From NCBI GenBank assembly GCA_934590355.1, contig CAKTOX010000001.1, positions 69,249 to 133,248 of the forward strand: a DNA stretch of 64,000 nucleotides, in the 5' to 3' direction. The notes beneath the pieces were generated by a model. The model saw only the letters and a program-made list of their open reading frames with translations. It made no database searches and was not told the origin of the DNA. The stretch comes from an uncultured Oscillospiraceae bacterium (lineage in GTDB: Bacteria > Bacillota > Clostridia > Oscillospirales > Oscillospiraceae). Made by a program: the position numbers and the translations under genes. This document shows, piece after piece, positions 1,189 to 12,694 of the stretch (positions are counted from its first letter, which is position 1; each line of letters starts with the position of its first letter).

Positions 1189-1276
1189 GCGCGAGTGGTG
1201 GAATTGGCAGACTCGCTAGATTCAGGTTCTAGTGCTCACTCCGGGCGTGCGGGTTCAAGTCCCGCCTCGCGCACCA
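1189..1276 (+). tRNA. tRNA-Leu (anticodon CAG)
   Basis: Acceptor stem GCGCGAG/CTCGCGC, anticodon arm CTAGA-TTCAGGT-TCTAG, long variable arm (class II), T-loop GGTTCAAGTCC, encoded CCA end. Confidence 0.9.
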
Positions 1277-1408: not shown

Positions 1409-2041
1409 TTGCCGCACGAGGAGCTGAGAGAAAAGAACATCAGGCTCGTAATCGAGAACGCCCTTGATAGTTTTTTGGAAAACGGAATAGAAAAAACCAA
1501 GGTAGCCGACATTGCGCGCCGCTCCGGGCTCACGGAGCGCTCGGTTTTTCGGTATTTTGAGACCAAGGCCGACCTCGTTTTGGCTGCATCGCTGCTGTAT
1601 TGGAACAGGATACTTGCGCTTATCGACCGTATGTCGCATGAAAATTCCGACGGCGGCACGACCGGCCTTGAGGACGCGGCAAACGTGCTCGTGTGCTACT
1701 CGATGCTGTATCACCTCGACCCCAAGGGCATGCGCTTCACGCTCGATGCGGAGCTGACCTTGCAGGCAGCAGGCAGGCTGCATGAGATAAAAAACCAGCC
1801 GCCCGAGCCGTTTGAGACCTCCGGAGGTCCCATGGCGAAGGCTATCCGCAAGGGTCTTGCCGACGGCTCGATAAGCCCCGAGGTGGACGTGAAGGAGATA
1901 TACTACAACTCCTACGACGCAATTCTGGGAATAATGCAGCGCCTTTCCATAGGTGGCAGCCCCAGCGCGAGAGAGCTCGATTACGACAGCAGAATGCTCC
2001 ATCTCAGCGAGATGTTCGTTAAAGCGCTCAGCGGAAAATAA
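1409..2041 (+). CDS. TetR/AcrR-family transcriptional regulator
   Basis: 210 aa; N-terminal HTH signature IEKTKVADIARRSGLTERSVFRYFETKADL; TTG start 8 nt after GGAGG. Confidence 0.85.
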   Translation: MPHEELREKNIRLVIENALDSFLENGIEKTKVADIARRSGLTERSVFRYFETKADLVLAASLLYWNRILALIDRMSHENSDGGTTGLEDAANVLVCYSMLYHLDPKGMRFTLDAELTLQAAGRLHEIKNQPPEPFETSGGPMAKAIRKGLADGSISPEVDVKEIYYNSYDAILGIMQRLSIGGSPSARELDYDSRMLHLSEMFVKALSGK

Positions 2042-2150: not shown

Positions 2151-3356
2151 ATGAAAGAACTGAAGCATTTGATTTACTTTGAGAGCCTGCTGGAGGACAC
2201 GAACAACGAGCTTGTCCGCAAGGCAGAGTCGGAGGGGGACCTGGCGCTCGGTTACACCTGCTTTCACGCGCCGGAGGTGCTCATGAACTTGGGCAATTGC
2301 TTCTCCGTCCGGCTTCGTGCACCGCACACCAACTCCATGGAGCTGGCAACCTATTACATGGCCAACAACAGCTGCGAGTTCGCCCGTGCGCTTTTGGAGC
2401 GCGCGCTTGAGGGCAACTACGCATTTCTCCACGCCATGATAGGCGTTGACGTCTGCGAGGCGAATAACCGCGCCATCGAGAATATGGAGATCATGCACGC
2501 GCAGGGCGAGGACAAGGACAAATTCTTCTACTGCAATCTGGACATTCCCTATTCCGACGACGAGGACTGCGTCGAGCACATCCGCGAGCAGGTCTCCAGA
2601 AAAATTTTAAAGCCCCTGCGCGAAAACTACGGCATCGACACCTCGGACGACGCCATCCGCGCCGCCGTGAGCGAGCACAACGAGGTCTGCCGCATTTTGA
2701 CCGAGATAGGCGAGCTGCGCAAGCTGGATATCCCGCCCGTCACGGGCTATGAGTACGCCGTTTTGGTTTTGGTCAGCTACACCTGCCCCAAGCGGTTCAT
2801 TCTCCCCTACCTGCGCGAGACGCTTGAGGAGATAAAAAGCCGCAAGACCGACGCCGAGAAGGACTACCGCGTCCGCGTTGTCGTCGTCGGCTCGGAGATC
2901 GACGATCCTCAGCTCATCAAGCTCATCGAGGGCTGCGGCGCACTGGTGGTCGCCGACCGCTACTGCTACGGCTCCTTCCCCGGCAGACAGGAGATAGAGC
3001 TCACCGACACCGAGGACGCACTCACGCAGGTCTGCCGCTGGTATCTGCAAAACACGGAGTGCCCGCGCCAGAGCGCAATGCACCGCGTCAAGTACCGCAA
3101 CGACCACGTCGCGCAGCTTGTTAAGGACTTTAACGCCGACGGCGCTATTTACGAGCAGATGAAGTTCTGCACCTACTGGTCGTATGAGCGCGTCATCGCA
3201 AACCAGGTCATGCCCCGCGACTACGGCATCCACATTCTCTCCATAGACCGCCCCTACATTTCCGGTCAGAGCGGTCAGCTTCGCACGAGAGTGCAGGCCT
3301 TCGTGGAGAGCCTTGAAATGAAAAAGCTCAGGACAGCTCAGAAGGAGGAAAACTGA
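2151..3356 (+). CDS. 2-hydroxyacyl-CoA dehydratase/benzoyl-CoA reductase family protein, HgdB-like small subunit (cassette 1)
   Basis: 401 aa; six Cys conserved with the paralogs at 5278 and 11169 (GYTC, SCEF, VCEA, DRYCYGS, ECPR, KFC); overall HGD-D-family look; GGAAG RBS. Confidence 0.8.
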   Translation: MKELKHLIYFESLLEDTNNELVRKAESEGDLALGYTCFHAPEVLMNLGNCFSVRLRAPHTNSMELATYYMANNSCEFARALLERALEGNYAFLHAMIGVDVCEANNRAIENMEIMHAQGEDKDKFFYCNLDIPYSDDEDCVEHIREQVSRKILKPLRENYGIDTSDDAIRAAVSEHNEVCRILTEIGELRKLDIPPVTGYEYAVLVLVSYTCPKRFILPYLRETLEEIKSRKTDAEKDYRVRVVVVGSEIDDPQLIKLIEGCGALVVADRYCYGSFPGRQEIELTDTEDALTQVCRWYLQNTECPRQSAMHRVKYRNDHVAQLVKDFNADGAIYEQMKFCTYWSYERVIANQVMPRDYGIHILSIDRPYISGQSGQLRTRVQAFVESLEMKKLRTAQKEEN

Positions 3357-3357
3357 C

Positions 3358-4926
3358 ATGGCATACAACCCCAAAACCGGCAAAGGCTTGGGCAGATATT
3401 ACGATGCCGAGCACCGCGCCTTCCGCGCCCGCGAATGGAGAGGCTTTAAGGACACCTTTTACGATTTCTTCCGCTGGCTCTACCTGTACGGCTTCATGGC
3501 CGTAAAGCTGGGCTGCCACCCCATACTCATGGTCAAATCCATGCTGCGCTACCGCTGGATGGTCTCCTACCTCACCGCGGCGCACATGGTCGACCGCCAC
3601 ACCATGGGGCTGCGCGGCAAGGAGCTGCACTATGCCCACAACCAGTTCTTCTCCGTCCTGCACAACTCCGTCATCGGCGTTCGTGACATCATCGTGCGCG
3701 ACGAGAACCTGCGCCCGAACAGCAAGCGTGCGGCAAAGCTGCGCGAGAACACCGTCATGTTCGACGAGATGACCCCGCATCTTATCATGATGGGCTTCCC
3801 CACCGTCAAGTGGATCGACATCGCCATGTTCGCCATCGGTCTGCCCTCCGAGGTCGATCAGAACGCAAGTATGTTCTACATAGACGCAATGGAGCATCTC
3901 GGTCTGCCGGCAGACGTCTGCCCCGAGCCCGCCTCCGAGTGCGGCTGCGCCGTTGTTGACGACTACCCCCGCGTCGGCAAGTGCTACTTCACCGGCACCA
4001 TGCCCTGCGACGGTGCGATCTCCCAGACGAATATCCTCACCCGCCACTTCAAGGATCTGCCCTCGTTCCAGATAACTCCCCCGCAGAGAATAAACGAGCC
4101 CGAGGTGCAGACCTACGCGATCAAGAACCTCAAAAAGGGCATCGAATTTCTCGAGCAGCAGTTCGGCGTAAAGTGGGACTGGGACGCATTTTGGAAAAAT
4201 GCCGAAATGTACAACGAAAGCTCCCGCTGCATGGTCGAAAAGTGGGACGTCAACTGCACCGACTATCCTCAGGTCTGCGGCGCTGCGCTTGCGCTCCAGC
4301 GCGAGTATGAGTTTCAGGCGGCCGCATGCATGGACGAGTTCATGCTCAAGACCGACCGCAAGGTCACCAAGATGATGCTCAAGGGCTACGAAAAGGACAA
4401 GGCGGCCAACGCACCCAAGCCCAAGTACCGCTGCCTCGTTTGGGCATGCCCCGCGCATTATTACACCAACTTCACCTATTGGACTCAGCACTGCTGGGGC
4501 GTCACCTGCGTAAACGACATGGAGGCGATGCTCAGCTACCTGCCCATCAGCACCGACAACAAGGATCAGGCGCTTGCCGACCTCGTTCGCTGCTATGAGA
4601 GAATGATGATGCGCTCCCACACCAACGGAGGTTATGCAAACCTGCTCGACGAGTGCTGGAAGATGTGCGAGAAATTTAACGTCAACATCGTCATCATGTA
4701 CGACCACGTTTCCTGCAAAAACGTCGGCGGTCTGCACGGTCTGTTCGAGGATCAGGCGCGTGAGCGCGGCATCCACCTCATTTGGATACCCCACGATGTT
4801 ATGGACCCGCGTACCGTATCCCGCCGCGAAATGCGCGAGGCGTTCAATCAGTATATGACGACCGTACTGCGCGAGGAGCCCCTCGACCCGACGCTGCTCG
4901 ATTACGAAGACAATCTCAGCTGGTAA
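3358..4926 (+). CDS. 2-hydroxyacyl-CoA dehydratase family protein, HgdA-like large subunit (cassette 1)
   Basis: 522 aa; starts 1 nt after the preceding stop with GGAGG RBS; motifs REWRG, DVCPEP, MPCDG, HCWG, SCK shared with paralogs 6471 and 9976. Confidence 0.8.
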   Translation: MAYNPKTGKGLGRYYDAEHRAFRAREWRGFKDTFYDFFRWLYLYGFMAVKLGCHPILMVKSMLRYRWMVSYLTAAHMVDRHTMGLRGKELHYAHNQFFSVLHNSVIGVRDIIVRDENLRPNSKRAAKLRENTVMFDEMTPHLIMMGFPTVKWIDIAMFAIGLPSEVDQNASMFYIDAMEHLGLPADVCPEPASECGCAVVDDYPRVGKCYFTGTMPCDGAISQTNILTRHFKDLPSFQITPPQRINEPEVQTYAIKNLKKGIEFLEQQFGVKWDWDAFWKNAEMYNESSRCMVEKWDVNCTDYPQVCGAALALQREYEFQAAACMDEFMLKTDRKVTKMMLKGYEKDKAANAPKPKYRCLVWACPAHYYTNFTYWTQHCWGVTCVNDMEAMLSYLPISTDNKDQALADLVRCYERMMMRSHTNGGYANLLDECWKMCEKFNVNIVIMYDHVSCKNVGGLHGLFEDQARERGIHLIWIPHDVMDPRTVSRREMREAFNQYMTTVLREEPLDPTLLDYEDNLSW

Positions 4927-4943: not shown

Positions 4944-5099
4944 ATGGCTTGGTACTGGATAGTTCTGATAGTTCTCTTTACTCTGTTCTGTCTGCTGTTT
5001 CTGGCATACATGACCAACGCGGACATGAAGCTCATCGAAAAAATATACAACGCCCTTATAAAATACCACGACAGCAAGAGCGTCGAGGAAAAGATCTGA
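4944..5099 (+). CDS. 51-aa single-pass membrane mini-protein (cassette 1)
   Basis: ATG 4944 lies 8 nt after GGAGG (4931-4935) inside ORF-track entry 4782..5099; MAWYWIVLIVLFTLFCLLFLAYMTNADMKLIEKIYNALIKYHDSKSVEEKI; shares a motif with the mini-proteins at 8060 and 8444. Confidence 0.65.
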   Translation: MAWYWIVLIVLFTLFCLLFLAYMTNADMKLIEKIYNALIKYHDSKSVEEKI

Positions 5100-5136
5100 T
5101 CCGATCTTCAAAACAGCATAAAGCGCTATAACGAAA

Positions 5137-5164
5137 AGAGCAGGCATGAGCCTGCTCTTTTTTG
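5137..5164 (+). terminator. Rho-independent terminator ending cassette 1
   Basis: AGAGCAGGC-ATGA-GCCTGCTCT stem-loop followed by TTTTTT. Confidence 0.8.
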
Positions 5165-5195
5165 TCGGTTTTTCGACATAAAGCAAAGTTTTGTG

Positions 5196-5223
5196 TTGCA
5201 ATTCTCGCCGAAAATGTTAAAAT
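5196..5223 (+). promoter_or_regulatory. promoter of cassette 2
   Basis: TTGCAA (5196-5201), 16-nt spacer, TAAAAT (5218-5223). Confidence 0.5.
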
Positions 5224-5277
5224 ATTATCGGTTTGCTTTATGCAGGCCTATCGCTAAGATAAAAACACGGAGGAAAC

Positions 5278-6474
5278 ATGAAAGATTTAAAGCATCTGCT
5301 GTATTTTGAGAATCTTCTTCAAGAGGCTCAAAATGAACTGATCCTGCAGGCGCAGAGCGAGGGGGATATCTGCGTGGCTTATGTCTGCGAAAACACTCCC
5401 GAACCGCTGCTGAATCTGCCGGGAACATTCTCGACCCGCCTGCGTGCGCCGCGCACGGGCTCGATGGAAATGGCGACCTACTACATGACGAGCTTCCTTT
5501 GCGAGTACAGCCGCGCCCTGCTTGAGCGCGCGATCGAGGGCGGCTTCAACTTTGCCGACTGCATCATCACGCCCGACGGCTGCACGATGATGAACAGAGC
5601 CGTTGAGAATATGGAGCTTCTCAACGCCGTCGGCAAGGACAAGGAAAACTTCTTCTATGAGTACATGGAAATACCCATGAAGGCCGACGACAACGGTCTT
5701 AATCTCTACACGCTCCAGTGCAAAAACCACATTCTCACCCCGCTGCACGAGCACTACGGCATCGACGTTTCCGACGAGGCCATCCGCAAGGCAGTCGCGG
5801 AGCACAACCGCGTGTGCGAGCTCATACGCGCCATCGGCGAGTTCAGAAAGGGCGTCGCTCCGCGCATCACGGGCTATGAGTTCCACGTCATCACCCTTGC
5901 GACCTACGCCGCTCCCAAGGCGCTTCTCATCAGTAAGCTCGAGGAGACGCTCGAGGAGCTCAAGACCCGTGAGCCGGACGATACGAAATACCGCGCAAGA
6001 GTCCTCGTCGTGGGCTCGGAGATCGACGACACGGACTTTATTAAGCTCATCGAGAGCACCGGAGCATACGTCTGCGCCGACCGCTTCTGCTACGGCTCCC
6101 TGCCCGGCAGAGATCCCATCGTGCTCACCGATGATGAGGACGCGCTCACGCAGGTCTGCCGCCAGTATATGTACCGCGGTCAGTGCCCGAGATACATGAA
6201 CACCGCGAAAATGAACGGCAGACGCGAATACGTCAACGCCCTTGCCAAGGAATACGACGCCGACGGCATAATCTACGAGCAGATAAAGTTCTGCGATCCC
6301 TGGGCTTACGAGCGCATGATGGGCTCGCACATTCTGCACGATGACTACGGCTATCCCGTGCTCTCGGTCGACCGCCCGTACTGCATTTCGAGCTCCGGTC
6401 AGATGCGCACCCGCGTTCAGGCATTTGTCGAGAGCGTCGAGATCAAGAGGATCCAGGGAGGGGAAAAGAAATGA
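5278..6474 (+). CDS. HgdB-like small subunit (cassette 2)
   Basis: 398 aa; paralog of 2151..3356 along the full length (MKDLKHLLYFENLL..., ...GQMRTRVQAFVESVEIK); same six Cys. Confidence 0.8.
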   Translation: MKDLKHLLYFENLLQEAQNELILQAQSEGDICVAYVCENTPEPLLNLPGTFSTRLRAPRTGSMEMATYYMTSFLCEYSRALLERAIEGGFNFADCIITPDGCTMMNRAVENMELLNAVGKDKENFFYEYMEIPMKADDNGLNLYTLQCKNHILTPLHEHYGIDVSDEAIRKAVAEHNRVCELIRAIGEFRKGVAPRITGYEFHVITLATYAAPKALLISKLEETLEELKTREPDDTKYRARVLVVGSEIDDTDFIKLIESTGAYVCADRFCYGSLPGRDPIVLTDDEDALTQVCRQYMYRGQCPRYMNTAKMNGRREYVNALAKEYDADGIIYEQIKFCDPWAYERMMGSHILHDDYGYPVLSVDRPYCISSSGQMRTRVQAFVESVEIKRIQGGEKK

Positions 6475-8042
6475 GCAACAAGAGAATAGGCTGCGAGAAC
6501 TTCGGCAAGGTATATGTCGAGGGTAAGCGTTACAGAAGCCGCCGTGAGTGGCGCGGCGTCGTTGATACACTTTACGATTACTCCAGATGGCTTCACAACT
6601 GGTTTAACATGGCGAGGATCGTCCTTATAAAGCCCCGCAACGTCAAGGCGATGTTCCGCTACCGCTGGATGGCAAACTACCTCGCCGTTCCCATGATGAT
6701 CGACCGCCACACTCAGGGTCTGCGCGGCGAGCATCTGCGCATCTGCCACGCCGAGCAGGACGTCATCGTTGAGGACGTCGCAAAGCTGCTCGACAAGCTC
6801 TTCAAGGGCGACCGCCGCATCGGAAACGACACCGAGTTTTCCAAGAAGGTCGTGCTCGTTGACGAAAACGAGATGCAGTCCGTAATGATGGGCTTTCCCA
6901 CCGTCGTGCCGCTCAGCCGCGAGATAGCCTCGACCTACATTCCCGTGCTTCTCAACCAGCGCGCCGCCATACACTACATAGACGTTGCTCAGGAATACGG
7001 TCTTGCCGGCGACGTTTGCCCGATGCCGGAGGCTGAGGCGGGCGTTTCCATCGATGACGACGCACCCATCCTCGGCTGCTGCGCCGTGCAGTGCAACACC
7101 ACCTGCGACGGCTCGCTGCTCAGTAACGGCGTCATCTCAAAGCGCATGGAGCTCGAGGACGGCATCCCCGTTTTCCAGCTCGCATCCCCGCTGCGTCACG
7201 TTAACGAGGACGTTCAGGAATACGCCGCGCAGGAAATTCGCAACGCCATTGCCTTCATCGAGGAGCACACGGGCGAAAAGTGGGACTGGACCCACTACTT
7301 CGAGTGCGCAAGACGCGTAAACTACGCAACGAAGTGCCGTCTGGAGTGGCTTGAAATGAACAAGTCCCCCTATCCGCAGGTCTTCGGCTCGAACCTCGCT
7401 CTGTACACCGAGACCAACTACATGGCGATAAGCGGCAGACTGCCCATCTTCGAAAAGACCGACCGCAAGATAACGAAGCTTGCCGAGCGCGCGTACAAGA
7501 AAAAGAAGATGGTCGCAAACGAGTACCGCCACCGCGCAATCGTTTGGGGCGTGCAGTCGCATTATTACATGGATCTGCTCGTTTGGATGCTCAACTGCTG
7601 GGGCATCGTGCCGCTGACGGATATGCTCTCGATGGACAACACCGAGATGATCGCAGAGGTCGACACCCCCGAAAACCGCGAGCAGGCGATATACGACATT
7701 GCAATGCTCACCGAGCGCATGATAATGCGCAACCGCACCCACGGCGGCTATAAGGTGCTGCTTGACGACCTGTGGAAGTTCGTTGAGGAGTTTAACGCCG
7801 ACATGGTCATTCTCTGGGAGCACATGAGCTGCAAGGCTCTCGACGGTATGCACGGAATGTTCGAGGAGCGCGCCCGCGAGCGCGGCATCCACCTTGTGTG
7901 GGTCTCCCACGATCTGTTTGACCCGCGCGTGGTCTCCCGTCAGGGCGTGCGTGATCAGATAAACACCTATATGCGCACGGTCATGGGCGAGGAGCCCGTT
8001 GACCCGAGCCTTGAAATTCTCCCCGACGAGGAATCGTGGTAA
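6471..8042 (+). CDS. HgdA-like large subunit (cassette 2)
   Basis: 523 aa; ATGA start/stop overlap with the previous gene; GGAGG RBS; paralog of 3358..4926. Confidence 0.8.
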   Translation: MSNKRIGCENFGKVYVEGKRYRSRREWRGVVDTLYDYSRWLHNWFNMARIVLIKPRNVKAMFRYRWMANYLAVPMMIDRHTQGLRGEHLRICHAEQDVIVEDVAKLLDKLFKGDRRIGNDTEFSKKVVLVDENEMQSVMMGFPTVVPLSREIASTYIPVLLNQRAAIHYIDVAQEYGLAGDVCPMPEAEAGVSIDDDAPILGCCAVQCNTTCDGSLLSNGVISKRMELEDGIPVFQLASPLRHVNEDVQEYAAQEIRNAIAFIEEHTGEKWDWTHYFECARRVNYATKCRLEWLEMNKSPYPQVFGSNLALYTETNYMAISGRLPIFEKTDRKITKLAERAYKKKKMVANEYRHRAIVWGVQSHYYMDLLVWMLNCWGIVPLTDMLSMDNTEMIAEVDTPENREQAIYDIAMLTERMIMRNRTHGGYKVLLDDLWKFVEEFNADMVILWEHMSCKALDGMHGMFEERARERGIHLVWVSHDLFDPRVVSRQGVRDQINTYMRTVMGEEPVDPSLEILPDEESW

Positions 8043-8059
8043 TTGGAAAGGAGATAAAA

Positions 8060-8227
8060 ATGTCCAAGCTTTGCCCTGTTTTCAAAAAGCTCTCGCTGGC
8101 GGGACTGTCGTTTTTCGCCGTCACCTTCGCCGTGTATTATTTTAATCTCGACATGAAGATGACCTCGGCAATGGAGCCGGTGCTCGAATTTTTCTACGAC
8201 AGAGTAGACCGCGACCAGCACCTATGA
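8060..8227 (+). CDS. 55-aa single-pass membrane mini-protein (cassette 2)
   Basis: ATG 8060 lies 6 nt after AGGAG, inside ORF 8036..8227; MSKLCPVFKKLSLAGLSFFAVTFAVYYFNLDMKMTSAMEPVLEFFYDRVDRDQHL. Confidence 0.65.
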   Translation: MSKLCPVFKKLSLAGLSFFAVTFAVYYFNLDMKMTSAMEPVLEFFYDRVDRDQHL

Positions 8228-8241
8228 TCTATTAAATATGC

Positions 8242-8282
8242 AAAAACCTGCCGTGAGCTTTAACGTTCACGGCAGGTTTTTC
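8242..8282. terminator. bidirectional terminator between convergent cassettes 2 and 3
   Basis: 11-bp stem ACCTGCCGTGA/TCACGGCAGGT flanked by AAAAA on the left and TTTTT on the right. Confidence 0.8.
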
Positions 8283-8291
8283 TATCATATT

Positions 8292-8444
8292 TTACAGTCT
8301 GACGTCGCGCTTGCGGCTGTCGTAGACCTTGTTGAGGATAGGTCTTACGCCGTAGTACAGCAGCTTGTTGTCAAGGTTAAACCAATAGATGAGCATACTC
8401 AGAGGAACGATGCTCATTGCACCTATTAGGAGCTTCTTTTTCAT
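8292..8444 (-). CDS. 50-aa single-pass membrane mini-protein (cassette 3); not in the ORF track
   Basis: Own translation of the minus strand: MKKKLLIGAMSIVPLSMLIYWFNLDNKLLYYGVRPILNKVYDSRKRDVRL; ATG 5 nt after the stop of the large subunit; YWFNLDNK motif matches YYFNLDMK of cassette 2. Confidence 0.6.
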   Translation of the reverse strand: MKKKLLIGAMSIVPLSMLIYWFNLDNKLLYYGVRPILNKVYDSRKRDVRL

Positions 8445-8449
8445 TGCCG

Positions 8450-9976
8450 TCACCATCCTTCGTAATCGTCAAAGTCAACGAGGCTCGCGTCAAGCGGCTC
8501 CTCCTGCATGACCGCGGTCATGTAGTCGGAAAACTGTCTGCGCATTTCGTTTCTGCTTATAGTGCGGTGGTCAAACATATCGTTCTGCACCCAGACAAGG
8601 TGCTTGTTCTTCTCCTTGGCCTGATCGTTCACAACGCCGGAAAGGCCCATCGCGCCCTTGCAGGTTATGTCATCATACACGAGCACGATGTCGCAGTTAA
8701 ATCTCTCCGCCTCGTCCCAAACCTCGAGCAGATGCTGGTATCCGCCCGTGAGGTGACGGCGCATGACTCCGCGCTCGTAGTTGTGCGCAACTCCCAAAAG
8801 CGCATCGTCAAGGTTATCCTCGGAGATGATGACGTTGCCGGAGAACATATCCATTCCCGCAACGACGAGGACGCCCCAGCAGTTATATGCCCAGGTGTTA
8901 AAGTCGATGTAGTAGCAGCCCGGACCGCCCCAGGTTATCATGCGGTGGCGAGTTTTGTCGAAGCTGACGACCTTGTCGCGGTATGCCTTTTCCGCAATGC
9001 GCAGCGCCTTTTTCGCGGCCTTGTCGATGAAGGGCATCGTGCCGCCGGAGAAGGTGAAGTAAAACGCATGGAAAAGCGGGCAGATGACGTGTCCGTATGC
9101 CGAATACGGCGTTTTGGCGTACTCCCATGCCTCGAACTCGTTGCGCACCTCTTTGTTGTGCTGCTTGATGACGCTGAAAAACGCGCGCTCGTCGAATTTC
9201 TCGCCCGTCGTGTCCTCGATGAATTTTATCGTATCCTTCATCTGCGCAAGTGCGTATTTATCGGTAGACTCGTCCTCCCAGCGCATCGGGATACCCGCAA
9301 CGGTCGTGGGTATCTTAACGCGGCGTTCTATGAGCTGGCTGTTCATGGTCGAGGAGTCGCAGGGCATATTATTCGTGATAAGGCAGGCGCCTATCTCGGG
9401 ATAATCGTCGTTTATCGCAACGCCCGCGGCATTTGCGCTCAGGCGGCAGGAGTCGGCGGGAAGCCCGACGTTTTCCATGATGTCCATGTAAAACGGCGCG
9501 AGGTTCTGATCCATATAAGTGCCCAGAAGTCCCTGAAGCACCTCAAGCGGCAGTGTCTTGAGATTGGGAAAGCCCGCTGCTATCTCGGGGCACATGGTCT
9601 GCTCGAGCATGACGAATTTATCGGCGTACTTCGTGTCACCGAAGCGGCGGTCACCCTTCATGCTGTCGGCTATCATGTTCGTCGTGCCGGTCATGATAGC
9701 GTGCATCTGAGTGTGGGAAACGCGCAGCGCGGGGCCGCGCATTCCGGCGGTGCACTTATCTATCATGTGCAGGGCACCGATATAGCCGCCGAACCAGCGG
9801 TACTCGAAAAGTCCCTTGACTATGCGAACGGGCGATTTGCCCGCGAATTTCACGAGAATGCCGAGATTTATGACCCACTGGGTGTAATCATAGAAGGTGT
9901 CCTTCAGGCCGCGCCACTCGCGGTGCTTTGCGATGCCGCTGCCCTTGTAAAAGCGTTTTGCCTCGTTTGCCATCAC
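8450..9976 (-). CDS. HgdA-like large subunit (cassette 3)
   Basis: 508 aa; paralog of 3358..4926 and 6471..8042; ORF-track start is GTG 9976, and ATG at 9973 (TGATG overlap with the upstream stop) is an equally good start. Confidence 0.8.
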   Translation of the reverse strand: MMANEAKRFYKGSGIAKHREWRGLKDTFYDYTQWVINLGILVKFAGKSPVRIVKGLFEYRWFGGYIGALHMIDKCTAGMRGPALRVSHTQMHAIMTGTTNMIADSMKGDRRFGDTKYADKFVMLEQTMCPEIAAGFPNLKTLPLEVLQGLLGTYMDQNLAPFYMDIMENVGLPADSCRLSANAAGVAINDDYPEIGACLITNNMPCDSSTMNSQLIERRVKIPTTVAGIPMRWEDESTDKYALAQMKDTIKFIEDTTGEKFDERAFFSVIKQHNKEVRNEFEAWEYAKTPYSAYGHVICPLFHAFYFTFSGGTMPFIDKAAKKALRIAEKAYRDKVVSFDKTRHRMITWGGPGCYYIDFNTWAYNCWGVLVVAGMDMFSGNVIISEDNLDDALLGVAHNYERGVMRRHLTGGYQHLLEVWDEAERFNCDIVLVYDDITCKGAMGLSGVVNDQAKEKNKHLVWVQNDMFDHRTISRNEMRRQFSDYMTAVMQEEPLDASLVDFDDYEGW

Positions 9977-11169
9977 ATTTTACCTCCCTGAAGCTTTTTG
10001 ATCTCGATGCTCTCGACAAATGCCTGAAATCTCGTGCGAAGCTGTCCGGCGGAGGCCATGGTATATTCCTTCTCGACGCCTATGCAGGGTATGCCTTCGA
10101 CCTCGTTCATGTCGTGCACGCCCATGACGCGCTCGTAGCTCCAGAATTCGCAGAACTTCATTTGCAGATACAAAATGCCGTCGGCATTGTAATCGCGCAC
10201 GAGATCCTTGAGGCACTGTCTGCGCTGGAGCTGCTTTTCCTTGTTCATAAAGCGGGGGCACTGGCTCGTTGTGAGATAATGCCGCGCAACTGCCGTCAGA
10301 GCACTCTCGCCCTCGCGCAGCTCGATCTGCTCTCTGCCGGGAATGGAGCCGTAGCAGTAGCGGTCGGCGCAAACGTACGCTCCGCAGTCCTCAAGAAGCT
10401 TCGTGAACGCAGGATCGTCCACCTCGGAGCCGGTCACGACAAGGCGTGCGCGGTAGCCGGGCTTCGGGTCCGTCTTGCGCTTTTTGATCTCCTTGAGCGT
10501 TTCCTCGAGCTTTTCCTTTATGAGATACTGCGGGCAGCACTCGGAAACAAGCTGGATAACGTGGAATTCATAGCTCGTGACGGGCGGGTTGGGGAGCTTT
10601 CTCATGTCGCCTATTTCGCTCACTATGCGGCAGATCTCATTATGCTCTGCTATCGCGGCGCGGATAGCCCCGTCGGAAACGTCGACGCCGTAGACTCTCT
10701 CCAGCGGCTCGAGTATGTACTTTTTAAGCTGTCCCTCATAGTGCTCAAACGCCGCCTTCGTGGTCACGAACGGCACGTCCATCATGCTCAGGAAAAAGTC
10801 GGGATTCTGCTCCTTAACGAGCCCCATGATGTCAAAGTACTCGTGCGCACGGTGCATCATCTGGCAGGTCTCGGACGAGAACATCGCAGACAGGAAGTTG
10901 TAACCCCCCTCCATGCTGCGCTCAAGCACGCTGCGGGTAAACGGGCAGGTCTTGTTTGTCATGTAATAAGTGCCGATGTCGGTATTGCTCGTGCCGGGTG
11001 CGCGCAGTCTCACCGAGAAGCAGCCGCCGAGATTGAGCAGCACCTCAGGAACGAAATAGCAGGTGTAGCCCAGCGCCCTTTTCCCCTCAGACGCCGCCTG
11101 CTTGACAAGCTCGTTATTCGCATCCTGAAGCAGGTCTTCAAAATAAATCAGATGCTTTAAGTCTTTCAT
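9973..11169 (-). CDS. HgdB-like small subunit (cassette 3)
   Basis: 398 aa; MKDLKHLIYFEDLLQDANNELV... closest to the cassette-1 copy; GGAGGAGG RBS. Confidence 0.8.
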   Translation of the reverse strand: MKDLKHLIYFEDLLQDANNELVKQAASEGKRALGYTCYFVPEVLLNLGGCFSVRLRAPGTSNTDIGTYYMTNKTCPFTRSVLERSMEGGYNFLSAMFSSETCQMMHRAHEYFDIMGLVKEQNPDFFLSMMDVPFVTTKAAFEHYEGQLKKYILEPLERVYGVDVSDGAIRAAIAEHNEICRIVSEIGDMRKLPNPPVTSYEFHVIQLVSECCPQYLIKEKLEETLKEIKKRKTDPKPGYRARLVVTGSEVDDPAFTKLLEDCGAYVCADRYCYGSIPGREQIELREGESALTAVARHYLTTSQCPRFMNKEKQLQRRQCLKDLVRDYNADGILYLQMKFCEFWSYERVMGVHDMNEVEGIPCIGVEKEYTMASAGQLRTRFQAFVESIEIKKLQGGKM

Positions 11170-11367: not shown

Positions 11368-12081
11368 ATGGAATTTGAAAAAATAAGCATCCCCTCTCCG
11401 AAGGAATGCTTTTTCGAGAACGTAAAATCGAAGATACTGACGGGCGAGCTCGCCCCCGGGCAGAAGCTGCCGTCCGAACGTGAGCTGGCCGAGCGCACGG
11501 GGATAAACCAATCGGCTATTCACCTCGCGATAAAAGACCTTGAGCGCACGGGCTTTCTGGACATCGTCCCCCGCCACGGAACGTATATCGCCGATTACGT
11601 TTCCAGCGGCAACTACGAGACGCTGCACGAAATCCTCAAATCCGGCAGCCGGCACATGACGGAGCAGCGCGTGATCTCGCTCGTGGAGACGCGAAACGCC
11701 ATAGAGGGCGGGGCGCTCATCCGCCTTGCAAGCGAGCACACGCCCGAGGACCTTAAGGCGCTTGAGGAGCACATCGCGCTTTTCCGAAGCGCGCGCGGCA
11801 AGGGCTTGGGCGCGGACGAGCTCGGAAAAATGACCAAGGACTTTCACTATCTCATCTGCAAGCTCAGCCGAAACGAGGTGTTTATACTGCTTATGAACTC
11901 CTTTGCCGAAATTTCGCAGGGGCTTTGGCGGCACTGCGCGGGGCATTGGGGGCTTGAGGGGCTCATTGAGCAAAGCGAGCATATCCTCTTGCTCATCAAG
12001 CAGGGGCGCGGGCTCGACGCGCAGGTCTATATAACCGAAAAATTCAACGAATACGTCCGCGACTGCGGCATAAAAATATGA
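11368..12081 (+). CDS. GntR-family transcriptional regulator (FadR/FCD-type C-terminal domain)
   Basis: 237 aa; winged-helix signature LPSERELAERTGINQSAIHLAIKDLERTGFLDIVPRHGTYI followed by an all-helical C-terminal half. Confidence 0.85.
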   Translation: MEFEKISIPSPKECFFENVKSKILTGELAPGQKLPSERELAERTGINQSAIHLAIKDLERTGFLDIVPRHGTYIADYVSSGNYETLHEILKSGSRHMTEQRVISLVETRNAIEGGALIRLASEHTPEDLKALEEHIALFRSARGKGLGADELGKMTKDFHYLICKLSRNEVFILLMNSFAEISQGLWRHCAGHWGLEGLIEQSEHILLLIKQGRGLDAQVYITEKFNEYVRDCGIKI

Positions 12082-12114: not shown

Positions 12115-12651
12115 TCAGCGCTTGTCGATGCACTCGATTATTTCACCCACAAAGACGAGATGGGGCTGCCAGCCGCCCTTAAAGTCGGGATAGACCCGCG
12201 GCATGGAGGCATAATACTCCTGAATTTCCGGCGCAAGATCCTCGCGCGAAAACTGATGCTGATACAGCTTCTTGCAAACGAAGGTGAGGCTCGCCTCCTC
12301 GTAGCTTATGCCCTTGCCGACCGTGACGGGAGTTAGCCCCGCGGCAGCGGCCTTGTCCTCAAATCTGCCCGTGTGAGTGCCGATATATGCAACGGCCTTG
12401 CGATACTGCTCAGGGTAAAAGCTCACCGTGAAGCACTCGCTTTTCGTGAGAAATTCGCTGGTGTATCTTGCCGGGTGCACGTAAACGGTCACCGTTGAGC
12501 AGCGCTTACCGTCGCGGCTCCATATAGTGCCGAGGCTGCCCCAGCTTACCGTGCAGCTGTTAAAATCGTCGGGCTCGCCCGCGGTCACGATCGCCCACTG
12601 CTTGTCAAACATCTCAAAAACCTTGTAGTCTTTTTCCTTGTAGCTATCCAT
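12115..12651 (-). CDS. flavin reductase-like (FMN-binding split-barrel) family protein
   Basis: WAIVTAGEPDDFNSCTVSWGSLGTIW...VYVHPARYTSEFL pattern typical of the Flavin_Reduct family; ATG 12651 lies 7 nt after AGGTGGA (the ORF track starts 12 nt earlier at a GTG inside the RBS). Confidence 0.65.
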   Translation of the reverse strand: MDSYKEKDYKVFEMFDKQWAIVTAGEPDDFNSCTVSWGSLGTIWSRDGKRCSTVTVYVHPARYTSEFLTKSECFTVSFYPEQYRKAVAYIGTHTGRFEDKAAAAGLTPVTVGKGISYEEASLTFVCKKLYQHQFSREDLAPEIQEYYASMPRVYPDFKGGWQPHLVFVGEIIECIDKR

Positions 12652-12694
12652 AATACTATCCACCTGAAATTTTAATTTGCCGTGCGATCTTTAT

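Follow-up and report, generated by a model that had tools for sequence, protein, structure and literature searches.

Three gene pairs for small (A) and large (B) subunits of HGD-D-type enzymes lie within the 64,000 nucleotides of DNA from a gut Oscillospiraceae bacterium analysed here (the window), and each pair is followed by a short ORF that an earlier note had proposed to encode a membrane anchor. This raises the question of whether the three ORFs are genuine, to which enzyme the encoded mini-proteins (minis) belong and what they may do there. The features discussed are collected in Table 1; related loci in other genomes carry L numbers.

Table 1. Coordinates of the three A-B-mini triplets and neighbouring features in the window.
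Feature	Position	Strand	Details
TetR-family regulator, upstream of triplet 1	1409..2041	+	ORF; syntenic L085 gene has PF00440 TetR_N
A1, small HGD-D subunit, BzdN-like	2151..3356	+	401 aa; PF06050, E 3.6e-86
B1, large HGD-D subunit, BzdO/HadB-like, putatively catalytic	3358..4926	+	522 aa; PF06050 on residues 169-496 only
S1 mini-protein	4944..5099	+	51 aa, TNADMK subtype
Intrinsic terminator, end of operon 1	5133..5172	+	13-bp stem, then T-run
A2, small HGD-D subunit	5278..6474	+	398 aa; PF06050, E 4.3e-86
B2, large HGD-D subunit	6471..8042	+	523 aa; PF06050, E 6.7e-36
S2 mini-protein	8060..8227	+	55 aa, 'FNLDMK[LM]T...RDQHL' subtype
Bidirectional terminator hairpin between convergent S2 and S3	8241..8283	.	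fold energy -31.1 kcal/mol, z = -10.6
S3 mini-protein	8292..8444 (read 8444-8292)	-	50 aa, 'FNLDNKL' subtype
B3, large HGD-D subunit	8450..9976	-	508 aa from GTG at 9976; PF06050, E 9.1e-35
A3, small HGD-D subunit	9973..11169	-	398 aa; PF06050, E 2.7e-87
GntR/FCD regulator, divergent from triplet 3	11368..12081	+	ORF; syntenic L085 gene has PF00392 and PF07729

The three mini-ORFs of the window

The ORFs lie where they were first described and the translations then given were confirmed, as were the close spacing to the large subunit (17, 17 and 5 nt from the stops of B1, B2 and B3 to the starts of S1, S2 and S3) and the Shine-Dalgarno-like sequences of the first two (AGGAGG 8 nt upstream of S1, AAGGAG upstream of S2). 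S3 had been thought to be absent from the ORF listing, but the listing does contain it, as an ORF of 54 aa (8292-8456, minus strand) that uses an alternative in-frame ATG at 8456; public gene callers give 50 or 54 aa. Each mini is the final gene ahead of a strong terminator, and the hairpin between S2 and S3 has an A-run on one side and a T-run on the other. The A2 stop overlaps the B2 start, B2 shares 38% identity with B1 and 33% with B3, and B3 read from the ATG at 9973 has 507 aa, as in public gene calls. In L097 and L098, too, a GntR gene comes immediately after the mini of the S3 type.

A profile HMM was trained on the mini-ORFs of L010-L080 only, loci whose B proteins are at most 66% identical to B1 and with nothing from the window included, and was then used to search the whole window, split into its 1,358 stop-to-stop segments. 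Exactly S1, S2 and S3 were recovered (E 5.7e-22, 2.6e-12 and 9.9e-9, respectively), and the fourth-ranked match had an E of 0.18. By this measure the three are far beyond chance and can be regarded as genuine ORFs. In indexed public assemblies the exact S2 sequence, called there as a gene, turns up in 514 blocks, and that of S3 in 143. Among S1 orthologs (L001-L009) dN/dS was 0.04-0.11 with synonymous sites near saturation, which indicates strong purifying selection on the S1-type mini at the amino-acid level. A Shine-Dalgarno-like sequence stands upstream of 52 of 74 minis, and the minis are probably translated.

Family size and operon context

The minis are a large, uniform and undescribed protein family; clustering at 90% identity gives at least 4,732 clusters (E<=0.01), and among the 120 matches listed, members have 51-64 aa and no Pfam domain. 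At 50% identity there are 304 representative clusters, with lengths of 37-149 aa among the 150 listed. No Pfam, NCBIfam or Rfam model matched at threshold and annotation is only 'hypothetical'. In a Pfam search of 21 members nothing reached threshold, and the weak matches below it were to small transmembrane families, e.g. DUF4446, CcmD_alt and a holin family.

The earlier note proposed to examine whether the mini-ORF co-occurs with the large subunit in related genomes, and it is present at every one of the 71 related loci whose downstream DNA is long enough (B proteins 44-99% identical to B1); nine loci without a mini, outside these 71, are all contigs that end too early. Divergent minis examined singly also adjoin HGD-D or activase genes. 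That the mini trails the large subunit is true of the three pairs in the window, but in most genomes it comes after the activase in a six-gene operon with the usual order CooC-like ATPase, A, B, activase (PF01869, TIGR00241 CoA_E_activ), mini and CdhC-like protein, where the mini stop overlaps the ATG of the CdhC-like gene in 55 of 74 loci. No encoded membrane partner was found in this canonical operon, and a search for proteins in which the mini is naturally fused to A, to B or to the activase found none. The window holds three 'satellite' A-B-mini triplets without ATPase, activase and CdhC-like genes, and in the satellites at L001-L009 and L071 the mini is likewise kept and these genes are gone. 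Since nothing but A, B and the mini is left in satellites, the mini stays with A-B when all else is lost, and its predicted partner is the A-B pair. In some strains triplet 2 has been lost as a whole and triplets 1 and 3 remain, each with its own mini.

S1-, S2- and S3-type minis trail B1-, B2- and B3-type enzymes, respectively, in other organisms as well, as seen for the S2 type at L099 and L095 and for the S3 type at L097 (B 64% identical, mini 62%). Divergence of the mini follows that of B (Mantel r 0.73; 0/5,000 permutations as high), which is also the expectation for any genes with a common operon history. Together with the synteny, the low dN/dS and the Shine-Dalgarno-like sequences, this upholds the earlier view of the minis as conserved ORFs that look translated and have a functional link with the enzyme pair.

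The partner enzyme

The enzymes had been compared with HgdAB. Membership of the HGD-D family (PF06050) holds, but the characterised enzyme closest to them is BzdNO, the core of a benzoyl-CoA reductase, and not HgdAB. The best PDB match of the A profile is BzdN (8s02_B, E 8.5e-31), and all six cysteine ligands of the BzdN [8Fe-9S] double-cubane cluster, as taken from the BzdNO structure (PDB 8S02; PMC11971306), align in A (C37/75/102/272/304/340 vs BzdN C36/73/100/263/293/327). The AF2 model of B1 (pLDDT 89.4) has extra helices at 30-114, and its top Foldseek matches are HadB (3o3m_A, first), BzdO (8s02_A), MbdO and DCCP; C188 of B aligns with C95 of BzdO. The N-terminal helical extension of B is Trp/Arg/Tyr-rich and occurs only in this B subfamily.

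With BzdNO(PQ), the Bzd-type class I benzoyl-CoA reductase, the A-B enzymes would share a core heterodimer of two HGD-D-fold subunits and a gene order of small subunit, large subunit and then ASKHA-type activase, and the model of B can be superposed on both BzdO and HadB. Identity is low, however, with A and B scoring far under the cut-offs of the NCBIfam models for BzdN and for double-cubane proteins, and the extension of B places some 110-150 residues outside the Pfam and structural matches. BzdNO has two activase genes (BzdP, BzdQ) whereas the canonical operon has one and adds the CooC-like ATPase, the CdhC-like protein and the mini. The BzdNO paper nowhere mentions a membrane (PMC11971306).

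The HAD enzymes HgdAB, HadBC and FldBC, with the activator HgdC or HadI, have in common with the A-B enzymes PF06050 and the activase type of the canonical operon (PF01869/TIGR00241), but they are described as heterodimers of an alpha and a beta subunit, each with one [4Fe-4S]-type cluster, have no described small subunit and differ in gene order, whereas A retains the six-cysteine double-cubane set; the NCBIfam HadC model gives 69.8 bits vs a cut-off of 700. A Fusobacterium enzyme reportedly has a third subunit of 24 kDa, much larger than, and unlike, the 6-kDa mini. DCCP with DCCP-R (PDB 6ENO, 7YYL) is matched by both A and B in sequence and fold, and NF040772 is the best NCBIfam match of A, but DCCP is a homodimer of a single polypeptide with no small subunit described, and A reaches 139 bits vs a cut-off of 350. 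The structure papers and reviews consulted on HAD, BCR and DCCP make no mention of a membrane or a small subunit, in agreement with the earlier statement that HgdAB-type enzymes have no such subunit described.

Anatomy and transmembrane-like features of the mini-proteins

A mini consists of a variable hydrophobic N-terminal segment, an invariant juxtamembrane motif and a 22-23-residue, usually basic helix. The shared motif previously noticed does exist, but its pattern was shifted by one residue in S1 and should read Y-x-[FT]-N-[LA]-D-[MN]-K; the second motif, then given as Y[DH][SR] about 12-14 residues later, is [YH]-D and lies 17-18 residues past the N. Neither Cys nor His is among the invariant residues, which are Y, N, D, K and D. 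For S1, AF2 predicts a helix at 3-25, a break at 26-29 and a helix at 30-50.

The uncharged run has a mode of 22 residues. Net charge averages +0.14 in the N-flank and +3.15 in the C-tail; in 80% of minis it is the tail that has the more positive charge, which fits the positive-inside rule. Conservation is weak in the N-terminal half of the hydrophobic helix (1.6 bits), which varies in length, and high in the membrane-proximal half and the motif (2.6-4.3 bits). The hydrophobic part spans 10 to 47 residues and can be duplicated to two or three segments; P0177 (74 aa), with two or more hydrophobic segments, was confirmed within a canonical operon. The 22-residue mode, the charge bias, the variable N-terminal half and the two-segment variants are consistent with the membrane anchor suggested earlier. 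Against this, a few lineages (L033, L053, L071, P0232, P0169 and P0239) have only about 10 hydrophobic residues before the motif, too few to cross a bilayer, so not every member needs a complete membrane span. These shortened minis retain exactly the -10 to 0 half of the helix and drop the rest. A one-sided conservation stripe runs along this conserved half (p = 0.018), and it would fit packing on protein as well as on lipid. For the copies in the window the topology is ambiguous, because the S1 subtype has a tail with a net charge close to zero, and in S2 and S3 the hydrophobic segment is flanked by lysines at either end.

Function of the mini-proteins

The best reading of these data, in which we place middling confidence, is that each mini is a dedicated third subunit that tethers one BzdNO-like A-B iron-sulfur heterodimer to the membrane. 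The variable hydrophobic helix would enter the cytoplasmic membrane with the short N-terminus out and the C-terminus in, and the juxtamembrane segment (F..TF.[IV]Y.[FT]N[LA]D[MN]K) and the following cytoplasmic helix would dock on the mini's own A-B pair, plausibly on the N-terminal extension of B.

We consider it unlikely, but of some weight, that the mini is instead a structural or assembly subunit of a soluble enzyme, with its hydrophobic helix buried in an A-B groove, e.g. against the B extension, where it would stabilise the complex or gate a substrate channel. The concentration of conservation on one face of the C-terminal half of the helix, the preservation of just this half in truncated variants, the retention of the mini with A-B in satellites, its co-divergence with B and the operon's lack of a membrane partner all speak for such a subunit, and the aromatic-rich extension specific to this B subfamily could form a cradle for it. 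A fixed groove is nevertheless a poor fit for an N-terminal half in which nearly every hydrophobic sequence is accepted, as are insertions and duplication, and the positive-inside asymmetry also tells against burial. Less probable still is an adaptor or maturation factor that brings the shared activase, or CooC-like/CdhC-like cluster-assembly machinery, to each A-B pair, and of which every paralogous pair would therefore need its own copy. Its place between the activase and the CdhC-like gene, with the frequent stop-start overlap, would suit such a role, as would the satellites, which rely on activase and maturation proteins acting in trans and keep the mini as sole accessory gene; but nothing in the sequence hints at metal or nucleotide binding, a 22-residue hydrophobic helix would be needless, and a common activase would keep the mini uniform rather than let it co-diverge with B subtypes.

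Very improbable, and largely refuted already by the conservation data, is the idea that the minis are chance ORFs or unrelated small membrane peptides (toxin-like, regulatory or translational-coupling spacers) hitch-hiking in the operon. Small hydrophobic ORFs are common, the weak Pfam matches point to assorted small transmembrane families and the overlap in canonical operons could suggest coupling; yet synteny is complete over a wide range of B divergence, selection acts on the amino-acid sequence, motif and tail length are constant, the leave-out HMM matches are strong (E 1e-8 to 6e-22), all Pfam, NCBIfam and Rfam searches stay below threshold, and in satellites the mini comes last before the terminator, with no gene left for coupling.

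A tethering subunit of this kind has functional analogues. OadG/GcdD/MmdD (OAD_gamma, PF04277) are small single-pass subunits of Na+-translocating decarboxylases, whose N-terminal helix spans the membrane and whose C-terminal part, on the cytoplasmic side, keeps the soluble catalytic subunit there. The analogy is functional only: they too are small and encoded within the enzyme operon, but bear no sequence relationship to the mini (21 members, no Pfam match at threshold) and belong to systems with an integral-membrane pump subunit, whereas no membrane partner is encoded here. CydX, AcrZ, KdpF and MgtS are single-pass proteins of <60 residues, encoded in or near the operon of the complex they bind, and proteins of this type are usually missed by gene callers and curated family databases; they have no sequence similarity to the mini and bind large integral membrane complexes, whereas the mini's conserved partners are soluble-type iron-sulfur proteins only. 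If the minis are indeed membrane tethers, the canonical operon's activase, CooC-like ATPase and CdhC-like protein would act in trans, which may be why satellites have been reduced to A, B and the mini, and the docked mini would keep at the membrane surface an enzyme that is ATP-activated, of low potential and otherwise soluble.

Small conserved ORFs accompany the dehydratase-like genes

All six A and B proteins (small and large HGD-D subunits) of the three paralogous pairs matched PF06050, with E-values from 1e-34 to 1e-87, and the A and B genes of each pair are joined by a stop-start overlap or a 1-nt gap. The three short ORFs (S1-S3, minis) that had been proposed after the large subunits were found where the earlier note placed them, with the same gaps, and both their translations and the Shine-Dalgarno-like sequences in front of the first two were correct. 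A shared motif does exist, but for S1 the pattern originally written for it is shifted by one residue; the true common motif of S1-S3 reads Y-x-[FT]-N-[LA]-D-[MN]-K. Since a terminator follows S1, and S2 and S3 share a hairpin between them, each mini gene is the last cistron of its own operon.

Features of the A-B-mini triplets and their surroundings (window coordinates)
Feature	Position	Strand	Remarks
tRNA gene	1189-1273	+	Rfam RF00005, 47.7 bits; between DUF975 membrane-protein gene and TetR regulator
TetR regulator	1409-2041	+	precedes triplet 1
A1	2151-3356	+	HGD-D (PF06050), small subunit
B1	3358-4926	+	HGD-D (PF06050), large subunit; N-terminal extension 3358-3800
S1 mini	4944-5099	+	17-nt gap after B1; AGGAGG upstream
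Terminator 3' of S1	5133-5162		13-bp stem
A2	5278-6474	+	HGD-D (PF06050), small subunit
B2	6471-8042	+	HGD-D (PF06050), large subunit; N-terminal extension 6471-6930
S2 mini	8060-8227	+	17-nt gap after B2; AAGGAG upstream
Hairpin common to convergent S2 and S3	8241-8283		-31 kcal/mol, z = -10.6
S3 mini	8444-8292	-	5-nt gap after B3; alternative ATG at 8456
B3	9976-8450	-	HGD-D (PF06050), large subunit; N-terminal extension 9976-9520
A3	11169-9973	-	HGD-D (PF06050), small subunit
GntR/FCD regulator	11368-12081	+	divergent; adjoins triplet 3
Flavin-reductase-like gene	12115-12663	-	just past GntR regulator; PF01613 in syntenic locus L085

Relatives were sampled as 80 loci of large-subunit homologs (99-44% identity), drawn from 573 confirmed matches in species-representative genomes. 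The mini co-occurs with the enzyme, a point that the earlier note had proposed to check: a peptide profile detected a homologous mini-ORF in 71 of these loci, and the nine loci without one are all on contigs that break off at B or the activase gene or shortly behind it. An HMM trained on loci L010-L080 only, and then run over the 64-kb window, returned exactly three matches, S1 (5.7e-22), S2 (2.6e-12) and S3 (9.9e-9), the next best having an E-value of 0.18. The S1 orthologs are under purifying selection (dN/dS 0.04-0.11), as synonymous differences are near saturation while the protein is almost unchanged, and the exact S2 and S3 sequences occur in hundreds of human-gut assemblies, where they are called as genes. 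Chance or artefact ORFs are ruled out by the leave-out HMM, the dN/dS values and the synteny. An RNA element in place of a protein was also rejected, since Rfam found only the tRNA gene in the first 14 kb and the sole strong structures near the minis are the downstream terminators.

The family is large. Searching 5.8 billion proteins with the mini profile gave at least 4,732 clusters; the best 120 of them are 51-64 aa long, carry no Pfam domain and, if named, are almost always called 'hypothetical protein'. When 1.84 billion cluster representatives were searched exhaustively with HMMER, 304 clusters passed E<=1e-3, and the best 150 of these span 37-149 aa. Pfam and NCBIfam scans of S1-S3 and 21 diverse members brought no family to its cut-off (best DUF4446, 16.8 bits against 27.4), and identity with a known small-protein family was therefore rejected. 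Among the best 150 representatives and the long B homologs, no fusion that joins the mini to A, B or the activase was found; the longer representatives P0159, P0233, P0261 and P0262 appear to be frameshifted or read-through fragments. Some B homologs with a length of 543-594 aa (P0360, P0377, P0381, P0385; L101:5001-6755) have a further N-terminal extension of ~25-70 residues that is amphipathic-looking and is not a fused mini; the P0360 contig ends before the mini position.

The mini is retained with A and B in different operon forms

In 51 of the 80 loci we observed a complete canonical operon of six genes; it is seen among L010-L080, and also at L081:3680-8842 and in L095. It encodes, in order, a P-loop ATPase of ~255 aa with a GCYC motif (best PDB match CooC1, 3kje, E 6e-15), A (~398 aa), B (~509-527 aa), a BcrAD_BadFG activase of ~265 aa (PF01869, E 4e-58; TIGR00241, 218 bits), the mini and a cysteine-rich protein of ~228-241 aa with a weak match to CdhC (acetyl-CoA synthase beta, PF03598). 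The earlier description of the mini as trailing the large subunit is thus true of the three pairs in the window, whereas in most relatives it does not directly follow B. In 55 of 74 cases the mini stop codon and the start codon (ATG) of the gene that follows have one base in common. The CooC-like ATPase and the CdhC-like protein hint at an unusual metallocluster maturation route for an enzyme of this type. In L095, where the canonical operon has a mini with two hydrophobic segments, an extra B-like gene (L095:6951-8504; 517 aa, 66% identical to B2) lies after the CdhC-like gene, without an A subunit or mini of its own.

The second form is a satellite consisting of A, B and mini only, which is found three times in the window and also in L001-L009 and L071. 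By tblastn the whole 64-kb window holds no homolog of the activase, the CooC-like ATPase or the CdhC-like protein, and an activase encoded elsewhere in the genome presumably acts on these triplets in trans. The mini is the sole accessory gene that stays with A-B. In some strains triplet 2 is missing and triplets 1 and 3 are both retained with their respective minis, which makes the triplet the modular unit. The content of the cluster varies between strains: in the close strains L090, L092 and L093 the region of triplet 2 (5278-8227) instead holds an SNF-family transporter and small ORFs, and in L001, L003 and L005 the neighbourhood 3' of S1 also differs. With TetR and GntR genes beside them, the satellites resemble substrate-specific modules, each under separate regulation. 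A GntR gene of another organism (L097:4284-4994) directly follows, and overlaps, an S3-type mini. The flavin-reductase-like gene next to the GntR regulator may encode a redox partner for the enzymes nearby or have no connection with them.

The A-B enzyme belongs to an uncharacterised clade

The best PDB match of the A subunits was BzdN (8s02_B, E 8.5e-31). When the A profile HMM was aligned with this chain, C37, C75, C102, C272, C304 and C340, all invariant in A1-A3, paired with BzdN C36, C73, C100, C263, C293 and C327, which are the ligands of the [8Fe-9S] double-cubane cluster (PMC11971306). Having kept all six cysteines, the three A subunits are probably double-cubane carriers. In BzdO the catalytic [4Fe-4S] cluster is bound by C95, C128 and C380. 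B C188 aligns with the first of these and C217 lies one residue from the second, while the alignment does not cover the region of C380; all of 85 B sequences have C188, C217 and C453. The AF2 model of B1 (pLDDT 89.4) superposes on HadB, BzdO, MbdO and the double-cubane cluster protein (DCCP) with TM-scores of ~0.7, normalised to target length. The last residue of all B proteins is an invariant Trp, with acidic residues before it. Their N-terminal ~110-150 aa form a subfamily-specific extension, predicted as helices at 30-114 by AF2, with invariant Trp, Arg and Tyr residues (REWRG, RW, YRW) and covered by neither PF06050 nor any PDB match.

Although the A subunits carry the six N-type double-cubane cysteines of Bzd-type benzoyl-CoA reductases (BCR), they fall short of an equivalog-level match, as TIGR03190 (bzdN) scored 82 bits where 454 are required, and no BzdO model matched B. 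The HgdAB/HadBC dehydratase label used previously did not hold: the HadC model NF052456 scored 69.8 bits against a cut-off of 700, and A keeps the full six-cysteine set where HadC has a reduced one (PMC11971306). Against the DCCP model (NF040772, cut-off 350) A reached 139 and B 28.6 bits, and DCCP is a homodimer of a single polypeptide, unlike the A-B heterodimer. With the models for BzdN, HadC and DCCP all missed by wide margins, the enzymes represent an uncharacterised clade of the superfamily of class I BCR, 2-hydroxyacyl-CoA dehydratases (HAD) and DCCP. The A-B architecture is nearer to BzdNO than to HgdAB.

Mini-proteins diverge together with their large subunits

S1-S3 share only 20-30% identity with each other, and B1-B3 (33-38%) are about as far apart. 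The mini subtypes recur in other organisms beside the corresponding B subtype: minis of the TNADMK type with B1-like enzymes (59-84% identity with B1), 'FNLDMK[LM]T...RDQHL' minis with B2-like enzymes (L099, L095), and an 'FNLDNKL..Y' mini with a B3-like enzyme in L097 (B 64%, mini 62% identical), where a GntR regulator again adjoins. Pairwise identities of B and mini are correlated (Mantel r = 0.73; none of 5,000 permutations as high), a correlation that is partly due to shared operon history. The telling point is the paralog-specific pairing inside a single genome.

Anatomy and possible function of the mini-proteins

We aligned 74 non-redundant members, anchored on the invariant Asn. The N-terminal hydrophobic half (-22 to -12) has low information (mean 1.6 bits) and the membrane-proximal half (-11 to -1) is well conserved, with F-10, T-7, F-6 and Y-3 on one helical face (p = 0.018). 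It is followed by the nearly invariant N-L-D-M-K-L stretch (3.1-4.3 bits) and a tail with conserved Y+17, D+18, R+22 and L+26, which ends exactly 22-23 residues past the motif in 77 of 106 representatives. The composition is transmembrane-like, the uncharged run having a mode of 22 residues and a length of at least 18 in 232 of 242 members. The mean net charge in these members is +3.15 for the C-tail and +0.14 for the N-flank, the C-tail being more positive in 80%, and this asymmetry predicts an N-out, C-in topology. On such sequence features the minis are candidate single-pass anchors, with a segment long enough to span a bilayer and a positive-inside bias, apart from ~10 members in which the run is 10-15 residues long, and from S1 with its near-neutral tail. 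For S1, AF2 predicted helices at 3-25 and 30-50 with a break at A-D-M-K (pLDDT 72). Conservation in the tail helix showed no significant periodicity (p = 0.97), and the hydrophobic moment of the tail was significant for canonical minis, S2 and S3, not for S1. The multi-TM variants P0150 and P0264 are on contigs of <700 bp.

The most economical hypothesis is that the mini is a dedicated third subunit, which would anchor each A-B heterodimer to the membrane on its cytoplasmic side. If translated and inserted in the predicted orientation, it may bind A-B at a putative docking site through the conserved juxtamembrane motif and the cytoplasmic helix, and the variable N-terminal helix would serve as membrane anchor. 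The main rival explanation is that the mini is a buried, non-membrane subunit, which would account for the one-sided stripe of conserved residues and for the truncated variants (L033, L053, L071 and P0232), in which only ~10 hydrophobic residues remain and exactly the conserved helix half is kept. The N-terminal hydrophobic part, however, varies freely in length and sequence and is even duplicated, as in P0177 (74 aa), a mini with two hydrophobic segments that is encoded in a canonical operon and starts 14 nt past the activase stop; such freedom argues against burial.

A role as an adaptor or maturation factor is possible, but would leave the hydrophobic helix unexplained, and a hitch-hiking peptide or chance ORF is effectively excluded by the selection and strict synteny with the enzyme genes. 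The nearest functional analogues of a membrane-anchoring subunit would be small single-pass subunits of the OadG/GcdD type and accessory proteins of the CydX/AcrZ type, although the mini has no sequence relationship to these and its partner is a soluble-type enzyme.

Implications for the BCR/HAD family

Enzymes of the BCR/HAD/DCCP family perform some of the most reducing chemistry in biology and are described as soluble two-component systems. We found no mention of a small or membrane subunit in the reviews and structure papers on HAD, BCR and DCCP that we consulted, and our literature search brought up nothing relevant on this operon. What is new is a conserved mini-subunit, together with accessory genes, on a known enzyme superfamily. 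The function is known for <1% of the members of these gut metalloenzyme families, HAD included.

Taken together, our results define a large uncharacterised clade in gut Firmicutes (at least 573 loci in genomes that represent species), its conserved six-gene operon, and a previously unnamed small-protein family that is the most faithful companion of the clade. The finding on this family is real and merits experimental follow-up. The family offers a clean, testable case of a functional protein of ~50 residues that is absent from curated family databases. Should the mini prove to be an essential third subunit or a membrane tether, attempts to express the enzyme in other hosts and to study its biochemistry will probably fail if the mini is left out, and its presence would point to the location of the substrate or electron donor. 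A wider reading, which we consider rather unlikely, is that the whole BzdNO-like, ATP-activated double-cubane clade, abundant in gut Clostridia, works at the membrane with the mini as obligatory tether, either because its substrates are membrane-resident or hydrophobic or because the enzyme exchanges electrons with a redox partner in the membrane, with the CooC-like and CdhC-like partners adding an unusual, possibly nickel-dependent route of cluster maturation. Candidate substrates would then be, for example, steroid-, lipid- or quinone-like, the TetR- and GntR-controlled satellites would give different specificities, and the BCR/HAD radical-enzyme family would gain its first membrane-bound branch.
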